A stretch of 32,590 bases of DNA from a virus (Duplodnaviria > Caudoviricetes). Location of the stretch: the IMG/VR virus record IMGVR_UViG_3300014169_000017, positions 1-32,590 of that record, one strand, 5' to 3'. This document shows, one piece after another, positions 1 through 29,517 of the stretch. Position numbers and translations under genes: made by a program. The notes under the pieces are model-generated. The model ran no database searches. It was given only the letters and a program-made list of their open reading frames with translations, and was not told the DNA's origin. The number at the start of each line of letters is the position of its first letter. Positions within the stretch are counted from its first letter, which is position 1.

Positions 1-92
1 CTCAGTTGCACACTTTGGCAGCAAAAAAAGTTTCAGATTGTCCAGAAGTGAGCGATAATACAGCAGGAATTGGGATCGGCTATGGTGATTTG

Positions 93-617
93 ATGGGTGG
101 ACGTGGATCGGGCGGGCGAAACCGAAAATCGGCTGCAACTAAGCGCGCGCAAGGCAATCCGGGTGGTCGATCTCTTAACGAGTTCGAGCCGCCGGCGTCG
201 CCTGGCGAGCCGCCAATGCCAAAATGGATGACGCCGGACATGAAAGCGGTGTGGGCGGAACTGATCCCAATCCTGCGCGAGAAGCAGGTTCTCGATACCG
301 CGGATTCGATCGCGCTCGCAACCCTCTGCTCCAATTACGTATTGTTCGCAAAGGCCGACGCTGCGGTGCAAAAATACGGTACGGTCATCTCTGAGATTGA
401 GGAAGCGACGGGAATGGCCGTTCTGCGCATGAATCCCGCGGTCCGGGTGCGGAGTGACACGCTGCGTCATCTGAAAGCGGGTTGGCAGATGTTCGGTTTA
501 GATCCTGCATCGCGCTCGGGTATCAGCACGGACAAGAGTGGAGCGAAGAAAAACGCGACACAGTCGGCGCTTGATTCGATCCTGTCGGCAAAATCTGGCA
601 ATGACGTGGTGAACTGA
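93..617 (+). CDS. terS: Terminase small subunit, P27 family
   Basis: ATG at 93 gives MGGRGSGGRNRKS..GNPGGR; PxW(M), W..LIP.L, NPAV and FGLDPASR motifs typical of P27 TerS; precedes terL. Confidence 0.9.
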   Translation: MGGRGSGGRNRKSAATKRAQGNPGGRSLNEFEPPASPGEPPMPKWMTPDMKAVWAELIPILREKQVLDTADSIALATLCSNYVLFAKADAAVQKYGTVISEIEEATGMAVLRMNPAVRVRSDTLRHLKAGWQMFGLDPASRSGISTDKSGAKKNATQSALDSILSAKSGNDVVN

Positions 618-760: not shown

Positions 761-1889
761 CTGCAGCCGGATCCCGTCGGTCGCACGTTATTCTCTCGAC
801 ATCCTCACCGGCAACATCCCCTCGGGCCGCATGGTTTACCTGGCGGTCGAGCGCTTCCTTGACGATCTGGTCCGGCAGAACACTCCCAGCTTCCCGTATT
901 ACTTCGATCAGGGCGGCGCGGTCGCCATCATCAAGTATTTCCGTGACCTGTGCCCGTTTCGCCTGGTCCCGTTCCAGCAGTTCATGGTCGCTAACATCAT
1001 GGGCTGGAAGGAATCGGGCGTGGTCTGCGCCGCGCATCCCTTCGGGCATCGGCGTTTTAAGACTGCGTATCTCGAGATTGGCAAGGGAAGCGGCAAAACC
1101 CCGCTCGCCGCGGGCGTTGCCACGTATTTAGCCTGCGCGGACGGTGAACCTGGCGCTGAGGTCTACATCGCGGCGCCGTCGAAAGAGCAGGCGGCCATCT
1201 GCTTCCGCGATGCGGTCAAGATGGTCGACGGCGACGACACGCATCAGGAGCTCGCCAAGATCTTCAAGCAGCACGGATGCGGCGGGAAGATGCTCTCGGG
1301 CAACCTTTCCTATGGAAATAGCTTCATCCGGCCGGTTTCCGCGGAACATAAGACGCTCGACGGTCCGCGACCGCATGGCGTGATCGCCGACGAACTGCAC
1401 GAGCACCCGAACACGCTGGTGCTCGACAAGCTGACGGCCGGCTTCAAAGCGCGCCATCAGCCGATCGCCTTTGAAATTACCAACTCCGGGTGGGACCGCG
1501 ACACAATCTGCTACAACCATCACGAATACTCGAGGCAGATTCTCGACAGGGTGCTCACGAATGAGCAGTGGTTCGCCTATGTTTGCGGGATTGACGTCTG
1601 CCCGAAGTGCCGCGCGAAGGGCAAAGAGCAACCGTCCTGCGACTCCTGCGACTCCTGGCTCGATTCGGACGTGTGGATTAAGGCGAATCCGGGCCTTGGG
1701 ACCATCCTGCAACGCGGATACCTCGAAACTCAGGTAAAGCACGGGCTCGAGATCCCCGGCAGCCGCGATTTAGTGCTCCGCCTCAATTTTTGCGTCTGGA
1801 CGCAATCGGAGGAGCGGTTCATCCCGCCGGAGACGTGGCGGGCATGCGCATGGGAGCCGGAGTTGCTGCGGGTGGAACCAAAGTTGTAA
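702..1889 (+). CDS. terL: Terminase large subunit, N-terminal ATPase part (Terminase_1-like); start uncertain
   Basis: L.PFQQF, RRFKTAYLEIGKGSGKT (Walker A), VYIAA..KEQA, VIADELH (Walker B), ITNSG (motif III), WIKANPGLG, RLNFCVW; stops at TAA before the nuclease domain. Confidence 0.92.
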   Translation: MIQHQTQWKTSAAETLLALNCSRIPSVARYSLDILTGNIPSGRMVYLAVERFLDDLVRQNTPSFPYYFDQGGAVAIIKYFRDLCPFRLVPFQQFMVANIMGWKESGVVCAAHPFGHRRFKTAYLEIGKGSGKTPLAAGVATYLACADGEPGAEVYIAAPSKEQAAICFRDAVKMVDGDDTHQELAKIFKQHGCGGKMLSGNLSYGNSFIRPVSAEHKTLDGPRPHGVIADELHEHPNTLVLDKLTAGFKARHQPIAFEITNSGWDRDTICYNHHEYSRQILDRVLTNEQWFAYVCGIDVCPKCRAKGKEQPSCDSCDSWLDSDVWIKANPGLGTILQRGYLETQVKHGLEIPGSRDLVLRLNFCVWTQSEERFIPPETWRACAWEPELLRVEPKL

Positions 1890-2057
1890 ACGCAAAGGTG
1901 CTACCGTATGCTGTGGTGTGACGTTCGTCACCACTACCCCTTGACACGCTGGTGTAATATGAATCCGCTTGCCTTAGCCGGTCGACGCCCGGCGTGTACC
2001 GCAAAGCGCACCCCATCGTTATCCCCCCGTCTCTAAAATGGCGACCTCTCCGGTTCT
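1853..2057 (+). other. Structured ~205-nt intervening sequence within terL with base-paired ends
   Basis: GGAGCCGGAG (1853-62) pairs with CTCCGGTTCT (2048-57); TTGCT pairs with GGCGA after a 3-nt bulge; internal hairpins at ~1913-1934 and 1977-1993. Confidence 0.6.
1884..1912 (+). promoter_or_regulatory. Possible sigma70-like promoter inside the terL gap
   Basis: TTGTAA (1884-89) - 17 nt - TATGCT (1907-12); each box 4/6 consensus. Confidence 0.3.
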
Positions 2058-2739
2058 GGGCATCGGCGACCCGATCGCTTGGCGCGAACTGAAAATCTTG
2101 GCACTCGCCAAGAAAATATGCTTCGGTGGGCTCGATCTCGGCGTCGTCAACGATTTCACATGCCTGGCACTCTACTTCCCGAAGCAGGCCGGCGTCGCAA
2201 TCGCCGTTCTGCTGCTCTGGGCGTGGGTTCCGATGGACGTTGACCATCACAAGCTGCTGAAAGAACGCTTTGGATACTTCGATTGGGTTAAGGGCGGCTT
2301 CGTGAAGCAGACGCCTGGCGTCCGCACGGACTACTCGATCGTCATGGCCGACATTGTGGCGCTCTCAAAACAGTTTCGCATCGAGGAACTGGCCTACGAT
2401 CCCGCCTACACTACCCAGCTCGTCCAAGAGCTCGCGGCCGAAGGCGTGACCATGGTCGAGCACCGGCAGGGCACGCTGTCGATGACCTATCCCATCAAAG
2501 AGTTCCATCGCCAGATTCTCGGGAAAGACTTTGTACACGGGATGAACCCGCTGCTGACGTTCATGGTGGATAATCTCGTGGTGAAAAGCGACGGCAAGGG
2601 CAACCTCAGTTGCCTCAAGCCCGATAATCCCATGTCGCCGCGCAAGATCGACGGCGCGGTCGCCTCAATTATGGCGGTCGGTCGATCGGCGGCGAATCCG
2701 AATGCCGGCGGTTCGACTGGAAAGGTCTTTGCCGGATGA
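2038..2739 (+). CDS. terL: Terminase large subunit, C-terminal RNase H-like nuclease part
   Basis: CFGGLDLG..NDFTCL, LAYDPAY, HGMNPLL.FM..N and KIDGAVASIMA motifs; different frame from the ATPase part; no Shine-Dalgarno upstream. Confidence 0.9.
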   Translation: MATSPVLGIGDPIAWRELKILALAKKICFGGLDLGVVNDFTCLALYFPKQAGVAIAVLLLWAWVPMDVDHHKLLKERFGYFDWVKGGFVKQTPGVRTDYSIVMADIVALSKQFRIEELAYDPAYTTQLVQELAAEGVTMVEHRQGTLSMTYPIKEFHRQILGKDFVHGMNPLLTFMVDNLVVKSDGKGNLSCLKPDNPMSPRKIDGAVASIMAVGRSAANPNAGGSTGKVFAG

Positions 2740-4436
2740 GATTCTTTCCGCGCACGCGCCTCGCTCTCAAGTTCCTCGGCTCCGCGTTCCGCGCGGATGC
2801 CGGCGGCCTCGGCATTGTTGGATCCCCGTCGCCTGATTCGGATTACTGGTACCACGGACTCGGGTACCAAAGCGCCGCCGGTCCGAACGTTTCCCCGGCT
2901 TCTTCGCTCCGCCTGGCCGCGGTTTTCGCCTGTACGCGCGTCTGCGCGGAAACACTCGGATCCCTTCCGGTCGGCATCTTCCGCGTCCGCAAGAGCGGTG
3001 GACGCGATCCCGCCCCTGATCATCCCGCCCAAGAGCTTTTCCTGCAGCCGAATCCCTGGCAGACCGGCATGGAGTTCCTCGAGATGATGCAGGGCCACCT
3101 CGAGCTGCGCGGCAACGCCTACGCGCTGAAAATCCCCGGAAACGGACGCGCCATCGACCAACTGCTGCCGCAGCACCCCGACCGCGTGCGCGTCTACCTG
3201 CTGCCGAATGGCCGGCTGCGCTATGAAATTACGGCGTATTCGAATGGCCAAATCGACCGCTACAGCCAAGATGAGATTTTGCACCTGCGGGCGTGGTCGT
3301 CGGACGGCATCATGGGCATGAGCACGGTGTCGGCCGGTGCGGAAACGATCGGCGTCGGCCTCGCGCAGCAGGAGCACCGGGCCCGGTACTTCCGCAACAA
3401 CGCGATTCCGGGCATGGTCCTCGAGAGCGTCAAGCTCACCGACGAAGCGCGCGAGGAAATGACCCAATCGATTTCCGAGAAGCTTAGCGGCGAGGGCGCC
3501 TTTAAGGTGTTTTCACCGCCGCCGGGGGTGACGGCGAAGGTTCTGGGGCTCACGAACAAGGATTCCCAGCTCCTTGAAGCGTCAAATGCCACAAGGACAG
3601 AGGTTTGCGGGATGTGGCGCGTCCCGCCCCATAAAGTCGGCGACCTCAGCCGCGGAACCTTTTCGAACATCGAGCAACAGAACATCGAGTTTGCGACCGA
3701 CTGCATGCGCCCGCGCGTGGTACGCATCGAGCGCCGGCTGGATCTGCAGGTGGTACAAGCGCTCCGGGCCTTCGAGTCGGCCATGGGCGACTACTTCGTC
3801 GGTCTGAACATGGACGCCCTATTCCGCGGCGACATGAAAAGCCGCTATGAGGCGTATGCTCAAGCACTTCCGTGGATGCTGCGGAACGAAATGCGCTCGA
3901 ACGAAGGGCTCAATGAAGTGGACGGGCTTAGCGAACCGCTGGTTCCGGTCAATCTGGAGACGGTCGATCAAGCGCAGAAGCGAAGCGACGCAGGCATCGC
4001 CGCCGCCCAGGCCAAGGCCGACGCCGCGACCGGCCAGGACAACCCGGAAGCGGAAACGCCCAAGGAACCGGGCCCAGAGGATGAGGAACAGAAGGCTATG
4101 GTCCGTCGAACCAATCAGTTACGGGCAATGGCCGTCGCTGCTGGCGGCCGCATCGCCAAGCGCGAGGCAAAATTCCTCACCCGTCTTGTTTCACGTGAAA
4201 CGCCCATCGCCGCTGGCGAGCTCGCCGAATTCTATGAAAATCTGGCGCCGATTGTCGCCCAAACCATGGCAATTCCTCTCCACGAGGCGAAAGCTTTCTG
4301 CGACGATCACGCGACGGCGCTCATGGCCGCGCGTAATCGTACGGCCGCGCAGATGGTTGTCGACCAGTTTGAGGAGGAAAGTCCTGTCACATTAGCCAAG
4401 CTCGCCATTGGCGACCGCGTGGAGGCCCGCCCGTGA
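2736..4436 (+). CDS. Phage portal protein, HK97 family, with C-terminal extension
   Basis: AVFAC.RV.AETLGSLP, PNPWQT..EF, LELRGNAY, EILHLR, W.VPPHKVG..TFSNIEQQ, L.RGD.KSR, NEMR..EGL; ATGA overlap with terL. Confidence 0.95.
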   Translation: MRFFPRTRLALKFLGSAFRADAGGLGIVGSPSPDSDYWYHGLGYQSAAGPNVSPASSLRLAAVFACTRVCAETLGSLPVGIFRVRKSGGRDPAPDHPAQELFLQPNPWQTGMEFLEMMQGHLELRGNAYALKIPGNGRAIDQLLPQHPDRVRVYLLPNGRLRYEITAYSNGQIDRYSQDEILHLRAWSSDGIMGMSTVSAGAETIGVGLAQQEHRARYFRNNAIPGMVLESVKLTDEAREEMTQSISEKLSGEGAFKVFSPPPGVTAKVLGLTNKDSQLLEASNATRTEVCGMWRVPPHKVGDLSRGTFSNIEQQNIEFATDCMRPRVVRIERRLDLQVVQALRAFESAMGDYFVGLNMDALFRGDMKSRYEAYAQALPWMLRNEMRSNEGLNEVDGLSEPLVPVNLETVDQAQKRSDAGIAAAQAKADAATGQDNPEAETPKEPGPEDEEQKAMVRRTNQLRAMAVAAGGRIAKREAKFLTRLVSRETPIAAGELAEFYENLAPIVAQTMAIPLHEAKAFCDDHATALMAARNRTAAQMVVDQFEEESPVTLAKLAIGDRVEARP

Positions 4437-8464: not shown

Positions 8465-9697
8465 ATGAACTCCCTCGTGCGCGTCGCTACGATTGGGCCG
8501 GAGCCCGTCACCCTTGCGGCCATGAAAAACTGGCTGCGTGTGCCCGCGACCGTCGTGGCTGACGATCTGGAGATCACGGACCTTATCCAAGAGGCGCGGA
8601 TGCACTGCGAATTGCTCGCTAATTGCGCGCTGGTTCGCACGAAGTTCGTCCAGTACCTCGACCACTTTCCGGGTTGGAGTTCGCGCGAGCTCGAGTATTC
8701 GGGCAGCATCTCGGCCATGGGCGGAACCGGCGGCTGGGACGGCTATGGAATCGATCGGCATCACCGCTGGCACGGGGAAATCAAGGTCAAGCGGCCGCCG
8801 CTCGTGCAAGTGGGTCCGATTACCTTCATCGGGACCGACGGCCGGCCTTATACGCTGAACCCCGGCCAGGACTTCATCGTCGATGTGGCATCGAAAATCG
8901 GCCGCATCCGCCCGATTCCCTACACGGTTTGGCCGCTCACCCTGCATGTGCCGGCGGCCATCGCCATCCCCTTCCTCGCGGGCTATGCTCCGAACACGGA
9001 TGCTGTGCCACAGCCCGGCGGTCCGACTGAGCCCGAAGTGCTCACCGAGGATGTGAGCAACCCGGAATGGCAGCCGGGCGCGACCTATCAGCAGTACCAG
9101 TACGTCATCGACGCCGCGGGCTGCATCGAGGTTCAGATGAACGCGGGTCCGGTGGTCGCCGGATCCGGTTTGCCGACATGGGGAACGCCGGGCGGCGCTC
9201 CGGTCGCGGACGGGACCGCATCGTGGCAGAATGTCGGCCGATTGCAGGGCTTTTGGGCTCCGGGGCAGCTTTTCACCGCTCCCTGCGTAATTCTCGACTT
9301 CAATAGCAACCTGCAACTGCTGAACGTCTCAAGCCTCATCTCCCAGAATCTCGCGCCCTACTCGCTGCAGGCTGTGGGCGTCTCGCCCGTTCCATGGGCG
9401 TCGGCTTTGGGCGCTCTGTCGACCGATAACGGCGTCGCCGGCGCGTGGCGGTGCCTTGGCCAGTACCAGGCACTCGGCGACACCGGCCTTGCTTCCCCGA
9501 ATTCCCCGGAACAGCAAGCCGCGGTGACGGTGGATCTTACCCTGCCGCGCTGCGTGACACGCGCCATCAAAATGCTGGTGACGCACTGGTATTACAACCG
9601 GGAGCCGATCGCGCAAGGTTCGGTGGTCAAGGTTCCCCATGGCGTCGAGGATCTTCTCGGCGAGGTCACCATCCACGATTTTGCACCCACACCATAG
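8465..9697 (+). CDS. Head-tail connector (HK97 gp6 / phiE125 gp8-like) with a large internal insertion
   Basis: N-terminal EPVTLAAMKNWLRV..DD.EI..LI..AR..CE; C-terminal AIKMLVTHWYYNREP..VP.GVEDLL. Confidence 0.88.
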   Translation: MNSLVRVATIGPEPVTLAAMKNWLRVPATVVADDLEITDLIQEARMHCELLANCALVRTKFVQYLDHFPGWSSRELEYSGSISAMGGTGGWDGYGIDRHHRWHGEIKVKRPPLVQVGPITFIGTDGRPYTLNPGQDFIVDVASKIGRIRPIPYTVWPLTLHVPAAIAIPFLAGYAPNTDAVPQPGGPTEPEVLTEDVSNPEWQPGATYQQYQYVIDAAGCIEVQMNAGPVVAGSGLPTWGTPGGAPVADGTASWQNVGRLQGFWAPGQLFTAPCVILDFNSNLQLLNVSSLISQNLAPYSLQAVGVSPVPWASALGALSTDNGVAGAWRCLGQYQALGDTGLASPNSPEQQAAVTVDLTLPRCVTRAIKMLVTHWYYNREPIAQGSVVKVPHGVEDLLGEVTIHDFAPTP

Positions 9698-10505: not shown

Positions 10506-10913
10506 ATGAGAGCCTTCCACAATTTCATCTCGCCGAAGCCGCCGACGGCAGATCCCACGCTGGTGTCATCCCAGAACTGGAATGACGTCCAACCCGCGGG
10601 AGTCTGTCCTGCCGCATATACCGCATCCGGCATCGTTCCCACACAAGTTGATTACATCCGCGCAACCGGCGGCGCGAATGGCATCGCGCTCCAGCTCACG
10701 CCCGGCATCTTCCAGGCGCAGGGTCCAAACGGAACGGTCGGGATCTACCAAACCTATTTTGCGATGAAAGTGGACGCCGGCGCTGGCGTCGTGACCTTCT
10801 CCGACGTGAACGGCGCGCTGATCAATGGCGGCGCAACCTATACCCTCGAAAACCAGTTTCAGTGGGCAATCTTCATGTGGAACGGCACCTCATGGGACGT
10901 ATTCGGCAACTAG
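10506..10913 (+). CDS. Short fibre-associated virion protein (135 aa)
   Basis: N-terminal H.F.S.K....DPTLV...NWN and C-terminal ING..TYTL..Q.......WNGTSW, both resembling phage fibre modules. Confidence 0.6.
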   Translation: MRAFHNFISPKPPTADPTLVSSQNWNDVQPAGVCPAAYTASGIVPTQVDYIRATGGANGIALQLTPGIFQAQGPNGTVGIYQTYFAMKVDAGAGVVTFSDVNGALINGGATYTLENQFQWAIFMWNGTSWDVFGN

Positions 10914-10923
10914 GAAACCAGTC

Positions 10924-13900
10924 ATGAAAAAACTCATTTTGCTCGCAACGCTCCTCGCAGCGCTGTGTCTCCCCAGCTTTACCCAGGACGCCGGAGTGGC
11001 GACGCGCATCGCTTATGGGCCGTCGCTGCCCTCGGGCGCTCCGATCTGGTACTACTTCACGCTGACGAACGGCACCGGCCTCTATCAGTGCCAGCACGCG
11101 CCGGATTGCACCTCAAGCGCGCAGTGGGTGCTCATCGGCCCGGGAACTGGCGGCGGCGGCGGCGGGTCGGCGATTTGGAACAATATCGGTGCGCCGAACG
11201 GGGCTTATAACCCGACCATGGGCACGTGGACCTCAGATTTTCAGTACACCGCTTCGGTCAACGCCTTTGAGTGGACCAACAGCACGCCGGCGACCAATAC
11301 CTATAACAACAATTCGCCGGCCATCATGCTCGGTGGCACTTATTGGAACGGGAGCGCGAGCAATCTTGATTACTGGTCGGTGGTCGATGTCTTAGGGACG
11401 GGCTCGAATCCGACCTCGCAACTTTACCTCGAGCACTATGGCTCAACCGGCAAAGCGTCGGTGTGGGTGCCAGCCATCACCATCCAAGGTTGTCCGGCGG
11501 GCTCGGTGGTTCTCGCCGACGGAACCGGCTGCTACACGCTGCCAGCGAATAGCAGCCTGTGGAGCGCGCTGCAGGCGCCGAACACGGCCCTGAACCTGAC
11601 GATGGGCGAGTATGCGACCGGCTTTCTCTATTCGGGATCCAGCCCGGCCGGGCTCGTCGGCTATCTCGGCATGAGCTGGACCAACACCGGCGCCGCGACG
11701 TCCTCACAGTCGCAAGACTCGCCGATGATGGGTTACGGCGGAAATTATTGGACCGGCAGCGCTTCGGCCGCCGATTTGTGGACAACGCAGCCACTTATCG
11801 CCGCCGGCGCGAACGGCTCGAGCATTTACACCTTCACGCACACCGGAACCAGCGGTTTTGCGGCCGTCAGCGCTCCAAATCTCGTAATTCCGGGGCAAGC
11901 CGCCGGATGCGCGGCCTTCACCACGGTTTCGGGCGTTTCTGGCGTTCTGCAGTCCACAGGAAGCCCTTGCGGATCCACGGGCGGAATGGTCTACCCGTCC
12001 GGCACCGGCATCGCTGTGGTCACCGGGGGCGCGTCCTGGGGCACTACGCTCACGGTTGGCAACGGCGCGAACAACATCCCGCAACTCGATTCGAACGCCC
12101 ACATTGCGGCCGCTTCGCTGCCGACCAATGCCGTCGTGACGAACTCGGCGGCCACGCAAAACATCGTCCAGCCGGCGGGCACGACAGCGAACGTCAATTC
12201 GCTCGAGCAAACCCGGTATGTCGATTCAAGCTGGAACTGGTCGCAGACCATCTCCGGCACCCTGACCGGCGGGACACAGGCGACCGTCACTTTGACTCCC
12301 TGCCCGCGCGGCATCGACGCATCCGGCGATTACCACCTGGGCGTAATCAGCGGTTGGAATGGGACGGCGTTTTCCGGTCCGGGCGGCTATCAGGTCACGA
12401 TCGCCGGTACCGGGACCACAGAACCCGTTTTCGTGACGGGTGGCTCCTGCACAACCGGCGCCTCGACCGGCACCATCGTTTTCACGCCCTATTACAGCCA
12501 CACGACGGGCTACACGATCAGTTCAGCCTCGCAGGGCATCCAAGAAGCCATCAACGACGGCTGCAGCCCCAGCGGCGTGCCCTCGCCGACGTATTACCTC
12601 AACAACAATTGCCACATCGTCATCCCGCCGGGCCTCTACAACGTCACCGGCCGCATTTTCCTGCACACGAATCAGTCCCAAGTCTCCGGCTATGGCGCTG
12701 TGCTGCAGTGCTCGGGCCGCGGGCCGTGCCTTGAAATCGGGCACGAAATGGACAGCTCGATCAACAATGACACGATCGAAGGTCTTGGCTTCCGCGTCGC
12801 CTCGAATCTGGCGACCGATCAGAGCTATGCCGGGTGCAATATCACCCAAACCCAGCGCACCTCGGGAGTCGTCACCATCACCACAAGCGGTACCTGCCCG
12901 CTTCGCACGGGCGACCCGGTTTCGATCCTTTACACGGATAACACCTCGTTCTGGGGCGACGTTCCCTACATCACCGTCACCGGGGCGAACACTTTCACCT
13001 ATCCCCGGTACGGCGTCCCTGACATCGCGGCGCAGACCACGCCGGGCGTCGTCATCCTGAACTTTGCGATGGTTCTCGACAACGCGCAAAAGACGATTCT
13101 CAACGACATCACCCTGGCGAACGGCGGACAGGCCGGCAACTTCGCCAACATCTTCGACTTCTGGGATGATGAAGCGGCCGCCATCCGCGGCTTCAACAAC
13201 AGCGCGGCGACGCCAGTAAATGCGGCCACCTGGGGCGGCAGCTTCGTGTACTCCGCCGGCGCCAACAACCTGCCGAATCCCTCGGTACAACTCGCCTCGG
13301 TCATCTCGTGGCGGGATTCGAACGTCACCGCGAACCTCACGAGCTGCGCGACCATCTTCAACAGCAACGGGTTTTACGTCCATGATCTGATTTGCCAAGC
13401 GGCCGGGCCCTGGCAATTCAACGTCTCAAACATCACCGGCAACTATCAGGGCGCGAACCTCGAGAACGTCTACAGCGAGTCGAATGCGGGCCTCAATCCC
13501 GCGAGCCCCGCGCATAACCCGTTCCCCGGTACCGGAATCGCCGGGTTGATCGCCGGGCCATCCACAGGCGCGGCCTATTTCCGCATCTCTGGATCTTCCG
13601 GGCTCCAAGGCGCATTCCCCTCGGGCGGCACCGGCTCGACGGCCATCACGTATTACATTGTCGGGCATGACACAACCGCGAATACCTACTCCGCGCCGCT
13701 GCCGGTTTTCACGTGGAACACGACGGGAAGCGACACGATCCCGTTCAACTTCCCGCGCATGTCGTCCTACACGAATCCGACCGATGCCATCAGCTATGAC
13801 ATCCTGAAAATGGCTTCGCCCGGCGGCATCGCCACGGGTACCGGGACGGCCGGGCCGAATCCCTATCCCTATGTCGGCGGCTGTCCTGGCGGCTCGAACA

Positions 13901-16413
13901 CGGCATGCGGCCTGGTCGCGACGAAAACACAGGCGCAAGCCTGCGGCAATAGCCTCGTTTGCACTTACACCGATACCGGCGGTTCGGTGACGTCGGCCTA
14001 CACCATCAACGAAGGCACCTTCCAACCCGTGCAAGCGTTCTGGCCGGGCGCGGTGGTCACTTCGAATCGCAGCATCCAAACCGACTCGGAGCAGGGTCCG
14101 GCGGTGGGCGTCGCTTTGAGCGCGAGTCCGCTGCAAATCGTGGGCCAATGCTTGGGCGGCGTTACCAGTCCGGGCGGCTATTCCATTTGCACCAACAGCC
14201 TCACAACGGCCAACAATAGCGTTCCTTCGCAGACGGCGCTGCTCCTGCCCGAAGGCGTCGACCATGGCGGCGCCGGCACCGGCGGTGCGACGTCCTGGGT
14301 TCCGCGCAAAGGCCGCATCAACTTCGGCCAATCGCCCTGGTCGGTCTATCAGCCGACGCACCTCATTACGCTCGTCGATTCGCAGGCCGCGCTTACGCGT
14401 GCGACGCCGGGCTATCGGCCGGTTGCCAGCGTAAATGACACGTGGATCGGAACGGATGAAGCCATGAGCGGCGTGGCCGGCAGCCAAGGGCGTCTCGCCA
14501 TGGGCTCTCCGGTCGCCATTTCCGAGTACATCGGCAAGGTTGGCAACCCCAGCAATGGCGATGTTCCATCGGAAACCTTGACCGCGACCGGCAAGACGCT
14601 GAATGTCCAGCTCACGGTCAACGGCAATCTCGTGGTCACCGGGTCGGTGACGTGCGGATCCGGTTGCGGAAGCAGCTTCGCTTATCCGGCGGGCACCGGC
14701 GTGGTCACCGTGTCCACTGGCACGGCCTGGGGCTCGACGCTGGGGCTTTCCGGCACCGGCACAAGCCTACTCACGAATGCGAGCCCCGTATTCACCGGGA
14801 CCATGACCGGCCCGACCTTCGTCGGAAACCTCACCGGCAATGCCAGCGGCCTTTCGGCGAACATTGCGGAATCACAGGTCACAAACCTCACCAGCGACCT
14901 CGGCCTGCGCGCGCTACTCTCTGGCGCATCCTTCACGGGCCTCGTCACAAGCACGGTGGGCTTCACGGCGCCGCAGTTCTGCATCGGCTCGAGCTGCATC
15001 ACCTCCTGGCCTTCGGGCAGCGGCGGTGGCGGCATCACCCCGACCTCTCTGGCGAATGCCCAAGTGGTTGTGGCGACCGGGGCGTCGACCGCAACGAGCT
15101 ATCCGGGCTTTACCAGTGACGGCTCGGCGAACGTGACCGTCAATAGCCTCACGGCCGGCGGCACGGCGTCTCCCGACCTTTTCACCGCGCAAGCAGCTCC
15201 CAGCACCCCGACCGGCAACACCTGGGCGGAGTGGATGGATTCGACAAACCTTGTTCCCACTTGGGAAGGCGCTGCGGGCCAGAAGTTTGTCGCCGTTACG
15301 CCTCTTGCCGCGTCCGGCGGCAACTGCGTCACCGGGATCTCGGCATCGGGCGTCCCGTCGACCGGAGCCTGCGGCGGCACGCCGGCAACCACAACTCCGC
15401 TCATGGATGGCACCGGCGCGGTCGGAACGTCGACCAATTACGCGCGCGCAGACCATGTGCATCCGACGGACACCTCGCGGGCTCCGCTCGCAAATCCCAC
15501 CTTCACCGTAGGCGTCACGGCTCCGCAATTCTGCATCACTGCCGGCGCCTGCATTTCCGCGTGGCCAAGCGGCAGCGGCCTGCCGACGGTGGTAAACGGT
15601 TCGGTCCTTATGGGCGTCGGCGGCGTCTGGACCGCGGTCGCGGTCCCGAATAGCGCTGGCAATCCGCTCGTTTTCAACAACTCGACGGACACGTTCAGCA
15701 CCCTCCTGCATGTGGACGTTGGCGAGCCCGTCAGCGCGGCCATCACGTCTGGCGGGAACATCTCGTCATCGTGGGATCAGACGGTGCAACTCATCAATTG
15801 CACCACAAATTGCACTGTCAACCTGCTGGCGCCGACGGGCAGCTCGGGAAACTTCCGGGCCGGCTTCATGGTGACGCTATTCAATATCAGCACGACGACA
15901 ACCATCACCATCACCGCAACCACCTCGGCAATCACGGCCGGGCCGACGTCGCTCCTGCCCGGTCAATCCGCGAGTTATAAGACGGACGGCAGCACGTGGT
16001 ATGCGCCGGGCGGATCTGGTCCGGTGTCGGGCACGACGACGACATTCTGGGCTATGGGTCCGAATCCGGTACCGCTCACCTCGAGCATGGTGATTTTCGG
16101 ACCCGTCCCCGTTTCGCAGCCCATTTCGATTCCGACCAATGGCGCGAACTCGATCGGCACGAGCCAGTTCATCCTCGGAACGCTGCCGACGGCGAGCTGG
16201 ACCGCGACGCTCTATCACATCGCCGCATCGACCGCCGGATGCACCGGAACCTCAACCTCGATGGGCACCGTCGCCATCTCGACAACCGGCGCGCAGACTT
16301 GGAGCCTGACGGCGACCAATTTCGCGATCGGTGACTGCATCAAAGTGGTCGCGCCCTCGAGCGTCGACACAACCGCAGCAAATCCAACCCTGTCTCTCGT
16401 CATGGTGAAATAG
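10924..16413 (+). CDS. Giant (1829 aa) Gly/Ser/Thr/Cys-rich tail fibre/tailspike-like protein with signal peptide
   Basis: Start at MKKLILLATLLAALCLPSFTQ; GIQEAIND...IPPGLYNV beta-helix cap; IAESQVTNLTSDL and YARADHVHPTDTSRAPLANPTFT fibre motifs. Confidence 0.8.
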   Translation: MKKLILLATLLAALCLPSFTQDAGVATRIAYGPSLPSGAPIWYYFTLTNGTGLYQCQHAPDCTSSAQWVLIGPGTGGGGGGSAIWNNIGAPNGAYNPTMGTWTSDFQYTASVNAFEWTNSTPATNTYNNNSPAIMLGGTYWNGSASNLDYWSVVDVLGTGSNPTSQLYLEHYGSTGKASVWVPAITIQGCPAGSVVLADGTGCYTLPANSSLWSALQAPNTALNLTMGEYATGFLYSGSSPAGLVGYLGMSWTNTGAATSSQSQDSPMMGYGGNYWTGSASAADLWTTQPLIAAGANGSSIYTFTHTGTSGFAAVSAPNLVIPGQAAGCAAFTTVSGVSGVLQSTGSPCGSTGGMVYPSGTGIAVVTGGASWGTTLTVGNGANNIPQLDSNAHIAAASLPTNAVVTNSAATQNIVQPAGTTANVNSLEQTRYVDSSWNWSQTISGTLTGGTQATVTLTPCPRGIDASGDYHLGVISGWNGTAFSGPGGYQVTIAGTGTTEPVFVTGGSCTTGASTGTIVFTPYYSHTTGYTISSASQGIQEAINDGCSPSGVPSPTYYLNNNCHIVIPPGLYNVTGRIFLHTNQSQVSGYGAVLQCSGRGPCLEIGHEMDSSINNDTIEGLGFRVASNLATDQSYAGCNITQTQRTSGVVTITTSGTCPLRTGDPVSILYTDNTSFWGDVPYITVTGANTFTYPRYGVPDIAAQTTPGVVILNFAMVLDNAQKTILNDITLANGGQAGNFANIFDFWDDEAAAIRGFNNSAATPVNAATWGGSFVYSAGANNLPNPSVQLASVISWRDSNVTANLTSCATIFNSNGFYVHDLICQAAGPWQFNVSNITGNYQGANLENVYSESNAGLNPASPAHNPFPGTGIAGLIAGPSTGAAYFRISGSSGLQGAFPSGGTGSTAITYYIVGHDTTANTYSAPLPVFTWNTTGSDTIPFNFPRMSSYTNPTDAISYDILKMASPGGIATGTGTAGPNPYPYVGGCPGGSNTACGLVATKTQAQACGNSLVCTYTDTGGSVTSAYTINEGTFQPVQAFWPGAVVTSNRSIQTDSEQGPAVGVALSASPLQIVGQCLGGVTSPGGYSICTNSLTTANNSVPSQTALLLPEGVDHGGAGTGGATSWVPRKGRINFGQSPWSVYQPTHLITLVDSQAALTRATPGYRPVASVNDTWIGTDEAMSGVAGSQGRLAMGSPVAISEYIGKVGNPSNGDVPSETLTATGKTLNVQLTVNGNLVVTGSVTCGSGCGSSFAYPAGTGVVTVSTGTAWGSTLGLSGTGTSLLTNASPVFTGTMTGPTFVGNLTGNASGLSANIAESQVTNLTSDLGLRALLSGASFTGLVTSTVGFTAPQFCIGSSCITSWPSGSGGGGITPTSLANAQVVVATGASTATSYPGFTSDGSANVTVNSLTAGGTASPDLFTAQAAPSTPTGNTWAEWMDSTNLVPTWEGAAGQKFVAVTPLAASGGNCVTGISASGVPSTGACGGTPATTTPLMDGTGAVGTSTNYARADHVHPTDTSRAPLANPTFTVGVTAPQFCITAGACISAWPSGSGLPTVVNGSVLMGVGGVWTAVAVPNSAGNPLVFNNSTDTFSTLLHVDVGEPVSAAITSGGNISSSWDQTVQLINCTTNCTVNLLAPTGSSGNFRAGFMVTLFNISTTTTITITATTSAITAGPTSLLPGQSASYKTDGSTWYAPGGSGPVSGTTTTFWAMGPNPVPLTSSMVIFGPVPVSQPISIPTNGANSIGTSQFILGTLPTASWTATLYHIAASTAGCTGTSTSMGTVAISTTGAQTWSLTATNFAIGDCIKVVAPSSVDTTAANPTLSLVMVK
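11167..15579 (+). repeat. Internal protein-level repeat pairs in the 1829-aa protein
   Basis: W..I/L.AP...TMG..WTN...SP...GG.YW.GSAS (x2, ~11167 and ~11551); YP.GTG...V..G..WG.TL (x2, 11992 and 14683); TAPQFCI...CI..WPSGSG (x2, 14965 and 15517). Confidence 0.75.
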
Positions 16414-19400
16414 TGCGTAAATTCGTCCTCTTTTTCGCCGCAATTCTGCTGCTAATTGCTGCACTGCCAGCGCGAGCGCAGACCTTCCAAACGGCCTATC
16501 AGTGCGCCAGCGGCAGCGCAAGCTGCATCCTCAATAGCACTTCGTTCTCCGTGACCGCCGGCTGGAACGCCGTGGTCATGGTGTCCGACGCCACCTACAC
16601 CGCTGGCACCTTCTCCGTCAGCGATACCAATGGAGACACTTTCAGCGCATGCGCGGGACCGGTGTCGATCAGTTCAAGTCTCATCGGGGAGCTGTTTTGC
16701 GTAAATTTCGGGACGACAAATTCCACGGAAGCCGTAACCTGCAGCGTCTCAAGCTCCGCCGGCTATCTCGCATGCGGCATTACGATCTATTCCGGCGGCT
16801 ATAACGTTGTCGACCAACACCAGACCTCGACCACATCGAGCGCCAGCAGCAACCTCACCAGCGGCGCGACGCCGACGACGACGGCGGCCTCGGAACTTGT
16901 GGTTGGCGGCTTTCTCAGTGACGGCGCCAACTCCTATACCTATACCGCGACGGGCGGCTACACCCTGCGCGGCGGCAGCCGCACCTCTTTCCATACCGAC
17001 GACATGGAGCTGGAGGATCTGAACGTCAGCAGTACCGGCGCGCAAACCGCGACCGCAACCGTCAGCACTTCGACTACAAGTGTTGGCCTGGTCGTCACGC
17101 TGAAAGCCGGATCCACACCGGCGGCCGCGCCCACGCTGACGATTGGGACCGGTACCTATTCGACGAATCAATCCCCGGTCGCGTCGACGACTACCACCGG
17201 CACGGTCATCCTCTGTTGGAACTTTGGTTCTTCGCCCGCGACGCCGGTCACCAATGGCCTCGGAACCGGATGCACCAATGGCACCTCGCTCGCAAACGGC
17301 GGGACACTCTCCATCACGGCAACTGGAACGCTCAAGATCGTCGCCGGCAGCAGCGCGAATTCCGATAGCACGGTGACGAGCGCCGTTTACACCATGCAAG
17401 GCGCGGCTCCCAGCATTTCGCCTGGAGTGGGCGTGTACCCGAACGGACAACTCATCACCCTCACCCCGCCATCAGGGTTCGGAGCCTGCTACAGCACTTC
17501 GGGCACTCCAATTAGCAATGGCAGCGGCGGATGCACCTCGGGCACTCTCTATTCCTCCCCATTTTCCCTGGGATCGAACGTTACGACTCAAAGGCTTTAC
17601 GCCATTTCGATCAAGAGCGGCTGGACCGACAGCACGGTCGCAACGCAAGCCAGCGCAATCCCGACGGCCGTATCGGAAACCGGCACCACGGTCACAGTGA
17701 CGAGCAATTTGAATCCTGGCGTGAACGTTCCAATCACCGTCGTCAGCGCCGTGCCCACTGGCTACAATGGCACCTTTCTAACAACCTCCAGCAATTCCAC
17801 GAGCTATACCTATACGGCTGCTTCTGGCTTGGGAACGGTCACGACTCTGCCGGGCGCCGTGCAAACGAGCTACGATCTCTATCCGCAGTTGGCGGTCCCC
17901 ACGATTTCGCCGGATGGGGGATCTTTCACCGGGCCGCAGAGTGTCACGCTGAGCTGCGGGGGAACGTGCTGCTACACGACGGACGGCTCGACTCCGACCG
18001 AGGCAAACAATCAGTGCATCAATGGGACAACCTATTCGAGTCCCTTCAACACCATCACGAGCGGCACCGAAACGCTAAATGTGTTGGGCACAAGTTCGGG
18101 GAGCGCCGATAATACGGCGACCGCGACCTTCACCATCTCCGAGGCGACGGCTGCAACCCCGACAAGTAGCCTGGCGGCGGGTGCGTACTTCTTATCTCAG
18201 ACCGGAGTGACGCTGAGCGATGCCACGAGCGGCGCCGCAATTACTTACTGCACGGACACGACGAATACATGCACTCCGGGCACGTCTTATTCCTCCTCGC
18301 TGACAGTGAGTTCGACCGAATATCTCCGCGCGCAGGCGACCGCGACCGGGTACAACAACAGCGCGGTTGCTTCTTATTATTACGTGATCGCCCCCGCCGA
18401 TCAGACGGGATCATATGCGTTTAGCGACAATTTCCAGAACTATGAAAACGCGAATGCCAAGGACGGTTTCCAGTTAGCATTCGACGCATGGAACACTGCC
18501 GGGCAGTGGACCGCCGGCGGCACCGCGCCCACTTATAACACCGGCGTGGCCACAATTCTCGATGTGACGCGTGGAGGCTCGAACGTCCAGCTCACGCAGT
18601 ACGGGAATGCCGAACTCGCATTTGCCACATTCACGGGAGCGACCGGATTCACCGCCGGCCAGTATTCGAAAGCTTATGTCCACAATGGCACCGGCACCGG
18701 GCCGCAGTGCGTTTTCGTCTATGCGAGCACATCGGGTGATCCGGCGACCGGCACCGCTTATGCTTTTTGCGTAAACCCACCTTCCTCCACCGCTGGCCTC
18801 TATAAGCTGGTCAGCGACTCGCCAAGCTCCATGGCCTCTGCCTCGAGTCTGACGATCGCGGACGGCTCGACGATCGAACTGCGGGCGCTGCCCGGCCAGA
18901 TTCAGCCGCTCCTCAACGGTGCGGCAGTTAGCGGCTGGTCATCGGTCTACAACGATTCGACTTATACCAGCGGCAATCCGGGTGTAAGTGGAGCGGGAAT
19001 TTATAACTGGACCGGCGGAACGATCAACGCGACATCGGCTCCGACAGCGATTACCTGGGGCGGCGCGACTTACTCGACTCATGGCCCGTTCGCCTGGACG
19101 AGCTCGAGTGACACATCTTCCGCCACATGGCCATGGAATAGTTCGACCGCGGCGCTCGTCGAAGTTCCGACCATCGGCGTTTACGTGCTCAACACCGGAG
19201 TGTCGGCCAACGGCACAACCGTCACTCTAACCTCAACGCTCAATCCGGGCGTAGGCGCATCCGTTGAAGTGAGCGGCATGTCGCCGGTGACGCTGAACGG
19301 TGTTTTCACCACAACGGCCAGCAGCTCGAGCTCTTTCAGTTATGCCAACACGACAACCGGCTGGGCAATCAGTTCGATTACTGAATCGGGCACGACTGCC

Positions 19401-20354
19401 ACGGTGAGCACGGGTCTGCCTCTGCTGAGCATTGGCGCGACTATCGTCATCACCGGCGCGACGCCATCCGGCTACAATGGCGCGTTTCTCATCACCGGCG
19501 GATCGGGCGGAGCATGGACCTTCACGGCGGCCTCGGGCCTCGGTACCGCGTCGGTTAATGGCACCGCATTCATGGCGGGCCAAGCGGCGCTCCAGAGCGC
19601 CTCGGTCTATGCGCTCGGCTCGGCAACCGCCGATGGGATCAAACAGGAGCATTACCTTTCAGCCTTCTCGCCCGCGCAATACATCCTGGCGACGGTCGCC
19701 CTCGACGTTACCAGCACGACGGTGCAAAACTGGTTCCTCAAGATCAATGGAAATTCCGGCATCCCCGGAACCGGCTGCTATGATCTCATCGGCTATTACA
19801 TCGGCGTCGAACCGATGTGGCAGCAAAACGGCGGAGCGCCGCCTTATCCGAATGCGTGCTCGGGAACCTCGGAATACTGCGGGACCATGTGGCTGCACAT
19901 CACGAAAGACACGCCCGCAACGCAGGTTGGCGGCCCGGTCGGCGGCTGCAACACAACGCCCAACTTCAACGTCTGGACGGTTGCCGGTTCACTCTATCTC
20001 CCCATGGCTGGTGATCATATCTTGGTCATGTATCAGCCAAACGGTTATCTCGATGTGTTCTGTAAAGGGACGGCGCGGAGTGCAGCCGCGCCATTTGGGG
20101 ATGGCTGCCCATCGACTGCGAGCTTCACGCGTGTCATGCACGTTTACGATTCGGACATGCTGGGCTCGACTCCAGCCGGCAACTCGCTCGGCTTCCCCGG
20201 AGTCTGGGCAGCCATCAACCACGGTGGCACGTCGATGAGTGTTTTCCAGAACGTCACGGTCGGCAGCGTGACCTCTGGAGTAACCTGCGCTTCAATCACC
20301 GGGGGTGCCTGCCTGACTCCCACAACCTACATTCCCATGAGCTTCATCGAATGA
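16413..20354 (+). CDS. Giant (1313 aa) secreted-type Ser/Thr-rich adhesin-like protein with about four chitobiase-C/Fn3-associated-like domains
   Basis: GTG overlaps upstream TAG; signal MRKFVLFFAAILLLIAALPARA|Q; repeats PTISP.GG....QSVTLS...CYTTDGSTPT...GTTYSSPF. Confidence 0.8.
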   Translation: MRKFVLFFAAILLLIAALPARAQTFQTAYQCASGSASCILNSTSFSVTAGWNAVVMVSDATYTAGTFSVSDTNGDTFSACAGPVSISSSLIGELFCVNFGTTNSTEAVTCSVSSSAGYLACGITIYSGGYNVVDQHQTSTTSSASSNLTSGATPTTTAASELVVGGFLSDGANSYTYTATGGYTLRGGSRTSFHTDDMELEDLNVSSTGAQTATATVSTSTTSVGLVVTLKAGSTPAAAPTLTIGTGTYSTNQSPVASTTTTGTVILCWNFGSSPATPVTNGLGTGCTNGTSLANGGTLSITATGTLKIVAGSSANSDSTVTSAVYTMQGAAPSISPGVGVYPNGQLITLTPPSGFGACYSTSGTPISNGSGGCTSGTLYSSPFSLGSNVTTQRLYAISIKSGWTDSTVATQASAIPTAVSETGTTVTVTSNLNPGVNVPITVVSAVPTGYNGTFLTTSSNSTSYTYTAASGLGTVTTLPGAVQTSYDLYPQLAVPTISPDGGSFTGPQSVTLSCGGTCCYTTDGSTPTEANNQCINGTTYSSPFNTITSGTETLNVLGTSSGSADNTATATFTISEATAATPTSSLAAGAYFLSQTGVTLSDATSGAAITYCTDTTNTCTPGTSYSSSLTVSSTEYLRAQATATGYNNSAVASYYYVIAPADQTGSYAFSDNFQNYENANAKDGFQLAFDAWNTAGQWTAGGTAPTYNTGVATILDVTRGGSNVQLTQYGNAELAFATFTGATGFTAGQYSKAYVHNGTGTGPQCVFVYASTSGDPATGTAYAFCVNPPSSTAGLYKLVSDSPSSMASASSLTIADGSTIELRALPGQIQPLLNGAAVSGWSSVYNDSTYTSGNPGVSGAGIYNWTGGTINATSAPTAITWGGATYSTHGPFAWTSSSDTSSATWPWNSSTAALVEVPTIGVYVLNTGVSANGTTVTLTSTLNPGVGASVEVSGMSPVTLNGVFTTTASSSSSFSYANTTTGWAISSITESGTTATVSTGLPLLSIGATIVITGATPSGYNGAFLITGGSGGAWTFTAASGLGTASVNGTAFMAGQAALQSASVYALGSATADGIKQEHYLSAFSPAQYILATVALDVTSTTVQNWFLKINGNSGIPGTGCYDLIGYYIGVEPMWQQNGGAPPYPNACSGTSEYCGTMWLHITKDTPATQVGGPVGGCNTTPNFNVWTVAGSLYLPMAGDHILVMYQPNGYLDVFCKGTARSAAAPFGDGCPSTASFTRVMHVYDSDMLGSTPAGNSLGFPGVWAAINHGGTSMSVFQNVTVGSVTSGVTCASITGGACLTPTTYIPMSFIE

Positions 20355-20611: not shown

Positions 20612-20918
20612 AACCAGCATTCAATTCCGCGATCAGCAGCGGCGCATACTCGACAATCAGCGCGAGTGGAACCGGCGTCGCCGTGAACGCCGCCGCGCGA
20701 AAGGGCAGTGCCTCGATTGTGGGCGCAAGCCGAAACCGAACCGCCGGCGCTGTCGCCGATGCCTGCGCGCCGCGAATCGTCGCTGGCGCGAATCTTTCGT
20801 TTGGAATGTCGCTCATGGGGTCTGCATTCGCTGCGGAACCCCCAAGGGTGACAATGGAACTAAGCTCTACTGCCGATCCTGCGCCGATGCACGAGCGACG
20901 CGCCGACGAGCCCAATGA
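20598..20918 (+). CDS. Arg-rich protein with four CxxC motifs (double zinc ribbon), probable nucleic-acid binder
   Basis: CLDC, CRRC, CIRC, CRSC; GTG at 20598 with GAGG SD (ORF track starts at 20583); stop overlaps next ATG. Confidence 0.75.
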   Translation: MSTIETSIQFRDQQRRILDNQREWNRRRRERRRAKGQCLDCGRKPKPNRRRCRRCLRAANRRWRESFVWNVAHGVCIRCGTPKGDNGTKLYCRSCADARATRRRAQ

Positions 20919-28004: not shown

Positions 28005-28507
28005 TTGTTCCTGGCAGCATGATCGAAAGTGGCCTGTACCTCTGGGCGACGACGAATCCCAATATTACGAAGTTCATGGGAAACGCCGACTCCCAGAGGA
28101 TCAAGGCTCCAACCTCGTTCTATTACTCATTCCTGCCCAAGCAGCCCGTGCTGCCGGGCATCATCCTTGACCGGCTGAAATCGCCCTATGCCTCGGAAAC
28201 TCTGGATCCTGGCACAAGGTTGCCGGGCTATCAAATCGAAGGCAAGTTCCAGCTTGGCTCGGTGGATAACATCGTCTCGGAAGGTCCAGCGGGATCCGAC
28301 GGGTACCTCTCGTGTGCCATGCTTTCGCAGGCGCTTCGGCGCGAGCTGCTCAACCTGGCGACCGGCAATGCGACGCTGCCGGATGGAACCATCATTGACG
28401 ATGTGATGATCGAAGATGAATACGACGCGCACTATGAAGTGGGCGGCCTCGGGTATCTCTGCCGGCGCGTGCTGCTCGTAACTCTGCTGTTTAAGGAAAT
28501 CGCGTGA
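28001..28507 (+). CDS. Probable tail completion/terminator protein (DUF3168-like)
   Basis: ATGA overlap; MIESGLY.., Y...LP..P.LP.I; position before the tail tube genes. Confidence 0.6.
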   Translation: MIVPGSMIESGLYLWATTNPNITKFMGNADSQRIKAPTSFYYSFLPKQPVLPGIILDRLKSPYASETLDPGTRLPGYQIEGKFQLGSVDNIVSEGPAGSDGYLSCAMLSQALRRELLNLATGNATLPDGTIIDDVMIEDEYDAHYEVGGLGYLCRRVLLVTLLFKEIA

Positions 28508-28971
28508 TCCCTGTCGCATATCGAGGCCGCGGTACCATCCTCGAAGTGTCTCTTGACCAAGCGGTCTGGCGGCCGGTCGCGCAGCTCCAGCAATTCGAGC
28601 CCACGGGTTCAAAGCAGTCGATCGCGGATCAGACGAACCTGTCCTCGCCGGGTGACTTCACGCAACACATGCCGCTGCAGGTGGACGCGGGCTCGCTCTC
28701 GCTGGCCGGCATCCTGAATCCGACCGACACGTCTTACACGGTGCTGGCGGAGATCCATGCCGGGCTGCTCACGGCGTTCTTTCGCGCGACGCTCATTGAC
28801 GGCTCGTGTTTCAATTTCGAGGCATCCGTCAGCGACTTTAAGCCGTTCAGCGCGAAGTGGAATAAGCTCTACGTCTGGTCGGCGACGCTCAAAATCACTG
28901 GCGGATTGCAGGGGCCAAGCGGAGCATTCCAGCAGGACGGATTCGACTCGGCGGCCTATCAAGACTTTTAG
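28504..28971 (+). CDS. Tail tube protein paralogue 1
   Basis: GTGA overlap; YRGRGT.L, D.T.LSSP..F....P...DAG..S, LIDGS...F.A.V..F, SATLKITG. Confidence 0.8.
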   Translation: MIPVAYRGRGTILEVSLDQAVWRPVAQLQQFEPTGSKQSIADQTNLSSPGDFTQHMPLQVDAGSLSLAGILNPTDTSYTVLAEIHAGLLTAFFRATLIDGSCFNFEASVSDFKPFSAKWNKLYVWSATLKITGGLQGPSGAFQQDGFDSAAYQDF

Positions 28972-28998
28972 CTTGTAAATTCAACAAGGAGCAAACCC

Positions 28999-29517
28999 AT
29001 GAAGATGTTTTTGCAACTGATGTTCCGCGTCTACCTGCTGCCGCTGCTCGGGCAGTTCTTCGCCAACCCGGTCGGCTATGCGGGCCGCGGCACGATCATC
29101 GGTTTCACGCCGACTCCGGTCACGGGCGCGAGCGTGTATCAGACCATGCCCCAGCTCGAGAAGTTCGAGCGTTCGGGCACGAAGGTCGATTTTGACGATG
29201 CGACCTGTCTGGACTCTCCGGGCAACAATAAGTTCCCGATCCCCATCGTCGTTGACAATGGCAAGTATTCGGCGGAAGGCGTGTTCGATCCCCAGAATGC
29301 GGGCATCGTCGCGCTGCTCGGCCCTTTGCAGGCCATGTTGCAGCTCGGTTACAAAATCACCCTGATTGACGGTTCGACGTTCACCGGCCTCTGCTACGTC
29401 TCGCAGTTTGAGGTGCCGAAGGTCGACCGTTACAAGGTGAACCGTTTCAGCTTCGAAGTTACGATTTTCGGAGTCGAGACGCTCACCCCACAGGGCGCGA
29501 CTGCCATCGCGGAGTAG
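28999..29517 (+). CDS. Tail tube protein paralogue 2 with hydrophobic N-terminal extension
   Basis: SD AAGGAG; YAGRGT, D.T.LDSP..K..IP...DNG, LIDGST.....YV..F, F.F.VTIFG. Confidence 0.8.
   Translation: MKMFLQLMFRVYLLPLLGQFFANPVGYAGRGTIIGFTPTPVTGASVYQTMPQLEKFERSGTKVDFDDATCLDSPGNNKFPIPIVVDNGKYSAEGVFDPQNAGIVALLGPLQAMLQLGYKITLIDGSTFTGLCYVSQFEVPKVDRYKVNRFSFEVTIFGVETLTPQGATAIAE

Follow-up and report, generated by a model that had tools for sequence, protein, structure and literature searches.

We have analysed a 32.6-kb window, that is, the whole of IMG/VR virus record IMGVR_UViG_3300014169_000017 (positions 1-32,590; Duplodnaviria, Caudoviricetes), whose first genes, terS, terL, portal, protease and capsid, form a head module of the HK97 type. 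The gene for the large terminase subunit, TerL, is here divided between two open reading frames (ORFs). The first one, terL-N, encodes the ATPase and ends at the TAA at 1887-89, and the second, terL-C, encodes the nuclease in another frame that is closed upstream by the TAG at 1975-77 and starts at an ATG (2038) without a Shine-Dalgarno (SD) sequence (its anti-SD duplex is +1.2 kcal/mol). These features had been noticed in a preliminary description of the sequence and were confirmed in the letters, as were matched CCG and CTG codons and the fact that deleting 1853-2057 restores an open frame of 611 aa. That description had proposed three readings of the ca. 205-nt interval with its paired ends: an unclassified mini-intron or other excised sequence, a ribosome-bypass element, or a terminase made as two chains. 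The last is the one that our results support. The gene is split at a site common to many related phages, and the HK97-type TerL is very probably made as two chains, each translated on its own; the model predicts that they re-associate, so that splicing would not be needed. The break falls at the ATPase/nuclease linker, with positions 15-88 of Pfam TerL_nuclease in ORF 1 and 93-284 in ORF 2; because the family breaks between positions 88 and 93, hardly any of the domain is lost. The features of the locus are collected in Table 1.

The break is not a product of assembly. Besides the possible source run (X1), contigs of runs X2, X3, X4 and X5 carry parts of the interval with zero differences (those of X2 tile 1777-2134 in two pieces), and the window sequence is present in runs of two years. 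Since contigs of other runs hold the interval unaltered, an assembly error is excluded. The suggestion that the deletion leaves a linker of normal length was only half true: the frame is open, but the linker of the spliced product (31 residues, counted from the conserved W as far as the first catalytic D) is shorter than in all of the 32 continuous homologues measured (32-52 residues; two more were not measurable). In the nearest 15 of these, i.e., those that keep the W/F of the window phage after "WRAC" or that group with the window on the nuclease tree, the linker has 35-37 residues (n = 13), 38 and 52.

Table 1. Features of the terL locus in the window.
Feature	Position	Strand	Remarks
Terminase small subunit	90..617	+	start codon uncertain, open frame 6-617; Pfam Terminase_4 E 2.8e-17, phrog_83
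terL-N, large-terminase ATPase chain of 395 aa	702..1889	+	TAA 1887-89; Pfam TerL_ATPase E 1.6e-19
Predicted latch (strand and helix, terL-N codons 370-390, docking on the nuclease chain)	1809..1871	+	predicted-complex interface
5' arm of the long-range helix proposed in the preliminary description, within terL-N coding sequence	1853..1876	+	context-dependent folding
148-nt intergenic gap between the two terL genes, cargo-ORF slot in relatives	1890..2037	no strand	locus comparison
Possible 42-codon ORF, coding status doubtful	1908..2036	+	weak SD (-3.9 kcal/mol); TAA ends 1 nt before ATG 2038
Short palindrome/hairpin, 5-bp stem and 4-nt loop	1918..1931	no strand	pair probability 0.95 in 11/11 windows
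3' arm of the proposed long-range helix (region upstream of ATG 2038 and terL-C codons 1-7)	2022..2057	+	
terL-C, stand-alone RNase H-fold nuclease chain, 233 aa	2038..2739	+	own ATG nine codons before the GDP motif
HK97-type portal	2736..4436	+	Pfam Phage_portal E 6.6e-84; start overlaps terL-C stop (ATGA)

The same cut recurs in relatives. Of the 62 best homologues of the ATPase half, 28, the window among them, stop shortly past the same motif and 34 run on, the split chains ending 5-12 residues (in one case 40) from the conserved W/F. We fetched 48 loci, of which 30 were distinct at the junction: 22 are split, including the window (L039), and eight are continuous. One further split locus, L068, lies beyond these 30 junctions. 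Both halves are held by 16 of the split loci, and the other six end or run into long inserts. From the ATPase stop codon to the nuclease start codon, the gaps measure -8, -4, -4, 0, 32, 115, 148, 156, 210, 217, 228, 243, 269, 352, 432, 643 and 989 nt and take all three frame offsets; in L002, L019 and L024 stop and start codons overlap and there is zero insert. An all-against-all blastn of 16 gaps or gap starts gave real similarity only in L003/L005, L003/L029, L038/L040 and L008/L047. The gap of the window had no similarity to the 15 others, blastn of positions 1700-2300 against the INPHARED phages returned no match, and the rest of the window genome gave just chance matches of 11-21 nt. Gaps that run from -8 to 989 nt and share no sequence with the window therefore leave the proposed intron or bypass unsupported. 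In other words, split homologues have non-conserved spacers, few of them with paired ends, which goes against the idea of a dedicated intervening element.

A search with the nuclease half found 55 stand-alone proteins including the window's own, 46 of them with 226-247 aa (the others of these being P0122-P0166). In a sample of 35 more distant loci no such break was found before the nuclease match, and the split is therefore confined to one group of these terminases. A search of 401 genomes in the class of G001 gave G001 itself as the sole match. The position of the nuclease start is also conserved: all 15 loci compared have a start codon in frame, 5-10 codons ahead of the GDP motif (ATG in 11), vs. 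four of 30 off-frame controls (ATG in one), with the range set after inspection and L003 left out as a near-copy of L005.

Quick trees were built for the ATPase (75 rows) and the nuclease (80 rows), and on them split and whole alleles interleave. On the ATPase tree the split state needs 11 changes, at least seven of them forced by well-supported branches, and on the nuclease tree eight (at least four forced), with all 46 split chains in one 99%-supported group together with 15 continuous proteins. This pattern would fit a single early fission followed by re-fusion and recombination, or else repeated fissions. A continuous protein with a 16-residue longer linker (P0018) looks like a read-through re-fusion. 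In five other proteins (P0012, P0013, P0019, P0025 and P0028) the ATPase part goes with the split proteins and the nuclease part with a distant lineage, likely a trace of recombination at the linker. The host is probably a member of the Acidobacteriota, because close relatives are found in one Terriglobales and one Candidatus Acidoferrum genome.

Both halves appear to be maintained. Over eight relatives, nonsynonymous divergence (dN) was 0.19-0.34 in both halves (0.19-0.32 in terL-N) vs. synonymous divergence (dS) of 1.2 to saturated, with dN/dS of about 0.13-0.22 in both; the close pair L059/L061 gave dN 0.001/dS 0.123 and 0.004/0.179 (dN/dS ca. 0.01-0.02). Judged from these rates, both terL halves are under purifying selection, and together with the recurrent cut and the conserved start position this supports the two-chain terminase that the preliminary description had listed last. 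The nuclease chain carries D33, D121 and D205, invariant in 42 nuclease chains and aligned with the catalytic aspartates of HK97. Modelled by AlphaFold it folds alone (predicted local distance difference test, pLDDT, 89.5; predicted template modelling score, pTM, 0.88), and its best Foldseek match is HK97 TerL (6Z6D, E 8.3e-15). The protein thus has the marks of an HK97-type TerL, namely the RNase H fold, three catalytic aspartates and both Pfam TerL_ATPase and TerL_nuclease, and at the sequence level also those of a two-gene terminase, with separate intact ORFs, a split inherited under selection and a nuclease start of its own.

We then have the question of how two free chains could work together. 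The predicted two-chain complex scored 0.88 vs. 0.04 for the best control, with runs agreeing in at least 82% of contacts and a partner pLDDT of at least 83; the score mark used is reached by 116 of 157 solved complexes and by two of 215 mismatched pairs. The predicted interface puts residues 370-390 (and 272-285) of the ATPase chain on residues 157-182 of the nuclease, with W379, C382, A383 and W384 facing residues 160-182; W379 and C382 are invariant in alignment A1. This pass may reflect likeness, because the structure of the one-chain HK97 TerL is solved, and the predicted complex shows that the halves are compatible and is not proof of binding. In HK97 TerL a unique strand joins the ATPase lid and the nuclease (PMC9410871), and by alignment this strand likely remains on the ATPase chain here, where it would make a plausible latch.

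The mechanism that we propose is as follows. The ATPase chain (702-1889) and the nuclease chain (from ATG 2038) would be translated separately. The final strand and helix ahead of the old linker would be kept on the ATPase chain as residues 370-390, and they are predicted to dock into the nuclease domain and so to substitute for the covalent link. The linker would have turned into an intergenic gap, a slot in which cargo ORFs may come and go, the 148-nt gap of the window being one such filler. The most likely routes to translation from ATG 2038 are re-initiation by ribosomes coming from the 42-codon ORF, whose stop lies 1 nt upstream, or use like the other SD-less starts of the phage; these, and the view that the end-to-end helix is most likely incidental, would be the weakest parts of the scheme.

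The helix deserves closer attention. The four helices of the preliminary description all exist as letters: 1853-62/2048-57 (two G-U pairs), 1863-67/2040-44 (two G-U pairs), 1868-76/2022-30 (one G-U pair and one mismatch) and 1897-1901/2008-12. The claim of an RNA-level structure was not borne out by comparison with chance, as 1840-2070 folds at -78.8 kcal/mol, no better than shuffles (128 of 200 are as good; z +0.44). At the boundaries originally given, which were chosen for pairing, the end duplex reaches -31.1 and one of 863 same-offset controls is as low, and a 10-bp helix occurs in 14 of 316 controls; with untuned windows of 60 x 80 nt, 17% of 602 controls match the strength of the window duplex. 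The probability of the long-range helix swings from 1.0 to 0.0 over 11 folding windows (at least 0.5 in five, at most 0.09 in six). The hairpin at 1918-1931 is the sole structure stable in every folding context, and the 19-mer of this palindrome has no exact copies in viral contigs. Across 12 loci, cognate end-pairing is clear in L001 and marginal in L013 (z -2.1), the window and L021, and absent in the other eight (z -0.4 to +1.4). The gap ends of L001 and L013 have short tandem repeats of 7-8 nt flanking the cargo, and in L001 these are inverted between both gap ends, giving a long helix. The structure thus exceeds chance weakly at best.

Several observations nevertheless weigh against the two-chain reading. 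The cognate end duplex of the window has -33.7 kcal/mol and z -1.95, with eight of 300 shuffles as good, and it beats 21 of 22 non-cognate pairings; the end-pairing of L001 is very strong (z -4.5), and L021 has a related helix (z -1.5). The ATG at 2038 has no SD, although other starts of the window phage (e.g., 8465 and 31238) and the nuclease start of L007 are also SD-less, and the starts of database proteins are gene-caller choices. The 42-codon ORF that might couple this ATG to upstream translation is homologue-free, with no match in the word-index search, Pfam or PHROGs, and has a non-coding-like codon pattern (codon-position GC 0.53/0.60/0.60, unlike real genes). The N-chain tail of the window is longer than, and ends unlike, the Ala/Val/Ser tails of its relatives. 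Splitting T4 gp17 reportedly abolishes packaging. The isolated nuclease domain of P74-26 neither binds nor cuts DNA (PMC5389665), so that a free nuclease chain would need the predicted docking.

Other candidates in and around the gap were discarded. Four matches of the 42-codon ORF among 1.84 billion representatives were repetitive proteins, three of which look, from their periodicity, like translated CRISPR arrays. A 65-codon minus-strand ORF (2016-1819) overlaps terL-N, has no match and was judged a shadow frame. A sigma-70 promoter scan of 1500-2500 found none, the TTGACA at 1941 being without a -10 at proper spacing. As to the tails of the split ATPase chains (among P0002-P0051), they are short, acidic and then Ala/Val/Ser-rich, recalling C-terminal protease tags. 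They end in Ala in 14 of 28 chains vs. a background of 18% (p ca. 1e-4, with rows that are not independent); the use of several codons for this terminal Ala hints at a protein-level signal, to which the tail of the window is an exception.

There are two explanations that would restore a single chain. In the first, an unclassified mini-intron of ca. 205 nt, or some other intervening sequence of that extent, would be excised to yield one continuous TerL mRNA; the helices do bring the ends together, the deletion leaves an open frame, and terL is generally known as an intron site. However, Rfam gave no match at gathering thresholds over the window, nor up to E 5 over 1800-2120. The group I core P3-P7 had no covariance-model match and its short motifs are absent. 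At the three equivalent junctions exon 1 ends in G in all cases instead of the U that closes a group I exon before an intron with terminal G, and neither the junctions nor Rfam revealed the GUGYG start, AY end or domain V of group II. The product would fall 4-6 residues short of the nearest continuous homologues and would lack the E that follows the W in most split relatives and in several continuous ones. Compared with the window, a continuous relative in runs X2/X3 is 190 nt shorter at this place instead of 205, i.e., five codons longer than the proposed product. Besides, relatives are cut at the same site with zero insert (L002, L019 and L024) or with unrelated candidate genes. From the sequence, splicing in the window phage is unlikely, this particular form of it extremely so, and the result for the original claim is negative: there is no new intron class. 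Related devices were examined and rejected. In an archaeal-type bulge-helix-bulge a 4-bp helix is flanked by two 3-nt bulges, one on each strand, and the window pairing has one 3-nt bulge, a 5-bp helix and a 9-nt bulge on the same strand. For a split intein there are only 12 residues from the conserved W in the N tail and nine before GDP in the C head, and the Pfam scan had no match to an intein family. The other single-chain alternative is a ribosome hop from terL-N into the nuclease frame, a bypass of the T4 gene 60 type, for which the matched CCG and CTG codons and the small hairpin in the gap could speak. In gene 60 the take-off codon adjoins the stop; here the matched codons lie 10 and seven codons before it, and for TTG, the final sense codon, the nuclease frame offers no match. 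A stop-adjacent matched take-off/landing codon is found in two of 16 loci, the window not among them, and gaps extend to 989 nt and beyond, so we give bypass hardly any credence.

Under the two-chain reading, the helix might still have a function as a refinement of this scheme. It would mask ATG 2038 and codons 1-7, and ribosomes finishing terL-N would melt it, coupling nuclease to ATPase synthesis. Its 3' arm does cover the nuclease start region, the cognate duplex of the window is among the stronger ones, and in L001 and L021 the ATG of the nuclease gene also lies in a helix with the end of terL-N, the paired letters differing. Against this stand the eight of 12 loci without cognate pairing, the six of 11 contexts in which the helix is nearly absent, the short inverted repeats of which the L001 helix is built, and a window gap for which no close relative for a covariation test was found by blastn gap comparison, in INPHARED or by exact search of viral contigs. 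We regard such a function as improbable. It could also be that terL was broken by an insertion and that the phage is defective, a very unlikely situation in our opinion. The gap and the N-chain tail of the window are indeed unique among the loci seen, but the halves are intact and under purifying selection with invariant catalytic residues, the clade shows this layout repeatedly, runs from two years contain the sequence, and the portal, protease and capsid genes are intact in the Pfam scan.

If terL is split without an intron, the gap becomes a place where other genes may lodge, and its contents vary widely among the relatives. A 74-aa membrane-like ORF in L031 has a four-base overlap with each half, minus-strand ORFs occupy the whole gap of L005 and of L007, start to stop, L013 holds two ORFs, and L047 codes for an 859-aa protein whose chitobiase-type repeats are shared with the window ORF at 16413-20354 (E 3e-29). 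L038 and L040 share one cargo ORF (71% DNA identity), behind which L040 has, by eye from the sequence, an apparent transposase-like ORF. The ATPase end is nearly the same in L008, L034, L046 and L047, and behind it each has a large gene that starts like a signal peptide and whose sequence diverges among the four after ca. 50 codons. Most gap ORFs had no family match at curated cut-offs, and because such matches are few their coding status rests on layout, except for L038/L040.

Within the gaps of L003 and L029 the nuclease-gene start is present once more, and a 12-nt linker, the same in both, connects it in frame to a second copy of the end of the ATPase gene; the cargo differs between the two sides of this copied junction. 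The tandem cassette of L003 lies at L059:3840-3920, and L003 is otherwise close to the single-cassette L005. In an exact search the tandem junction turned up in just two viral records, each of the L003 type, and four records had no additional copies of the arms elsewhere. At the right end of the gap, five loci (L001, L003, L005, L007 and L021) have a -10-like hexamer (TAGGAT, TACAAT-like), a putative promoter, 6-8 nt before the ATG of the minus-strand cargo (leaderless type); in L003, L005 and L007 it lies inside the first codons of the nuclease gene. In L005 and L007 a single CATG serves as the start of both cargo and nuclease gene, which diverge from it, and the stops of cargo and ATPase overlap. 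We could imagine, as a speculation that is more likely wrong than right, that the terL gap is an integrase-free cassette exchanger. Its shared homology arms would be the terminal ca. 25 nt of the ATPase gene and the initial ca. 25 nt of the nuclease gene, the nuclease-gene start would double as a reverse promoter for leaderless cargo, cassettes would stack in tandem via the shared junction (L003, L029), and exchange would toggle between one- and two-chain terminases. Our searches, which covered the main text of the papers open to us, found no published description of a cargo slot inside terL.

Elsewhere in the window, a 410-aa head-tail adaptor (8465-9697; phrog_442 at residues 4-70 and phrog_40 at 364-399) carries a long insertion, in frame, made up of short repeats with Trp. 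In the regions 28504-29517 and 31238-31849, a tandem pair of major-tail-protein paralogues (phrog_158) and a tail-completion gene are located behind the endolysin, distant from the head genes. Three very long ORFs (10825-16413, 16413-20354 and 20915-25585; 1862, 1313 and 1556 aa) have nearly no family matches.

The positive result is modest, as a terminase encoded by two genes has already been published for isolated Arthrobacter cluster AY phages such as BillyTP, in which ATPase and nuclease are separate consecutive genes (PMC11920828). What the present clade offers are one-chain relatives 55-76% identical over the ATPase part, i.e., matched pairs with a natural two-chain terminase. They let one ask whether the covalent ATPase-nuclease link is needed for the switch between cutting and pumping, the work on P74-26 having proposed that the tether controls cleavage (PMC5389665). 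The two-gene layout also explains the "truncated" terL of annotation pipelines for these phages.

Group I introns reportedly occur in phage terL genes, e.g., in Bastillevirinae, and the window resembles them in having an interruption inside terL with paired ends, but differs in lacking an Rfam match, a U|...G| junction or a core conserved among relatives. With the T4 gene 60 bypass it has in common a stop in the gap, a hairpin and matched codons somewhere near; however, these codons do not flank the stop, and the gap is ca. four times longer and not conserved. The cargo, with variable accessory genes on either strand in a structural operon, is reminiscent of the morons or cassette hotspots of lambdoid and HK97-like phages, except that the slot lies inside a former single gene, flanked by the ends of the two terL halves. 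Compared with HK97 TerL, a single chain (PDB 6Z6D; PMC9410871), the window is cut just before the first catalytic strand, and the segment left on its ATPase chain is, by alignment, likely the HK97 connecting strand plus a helix. The closest parallel is with cluster AY, compared by its published description, where ATPase and nuclease are likewise in two genes of a temperate-type phage. There the genes are described as consecutive, while in the clade of the window the gap varies from an overlap to ca. 1 kb or more, relatives carry cargo ORFs in it, and split and whole alleles coexist in one clade.

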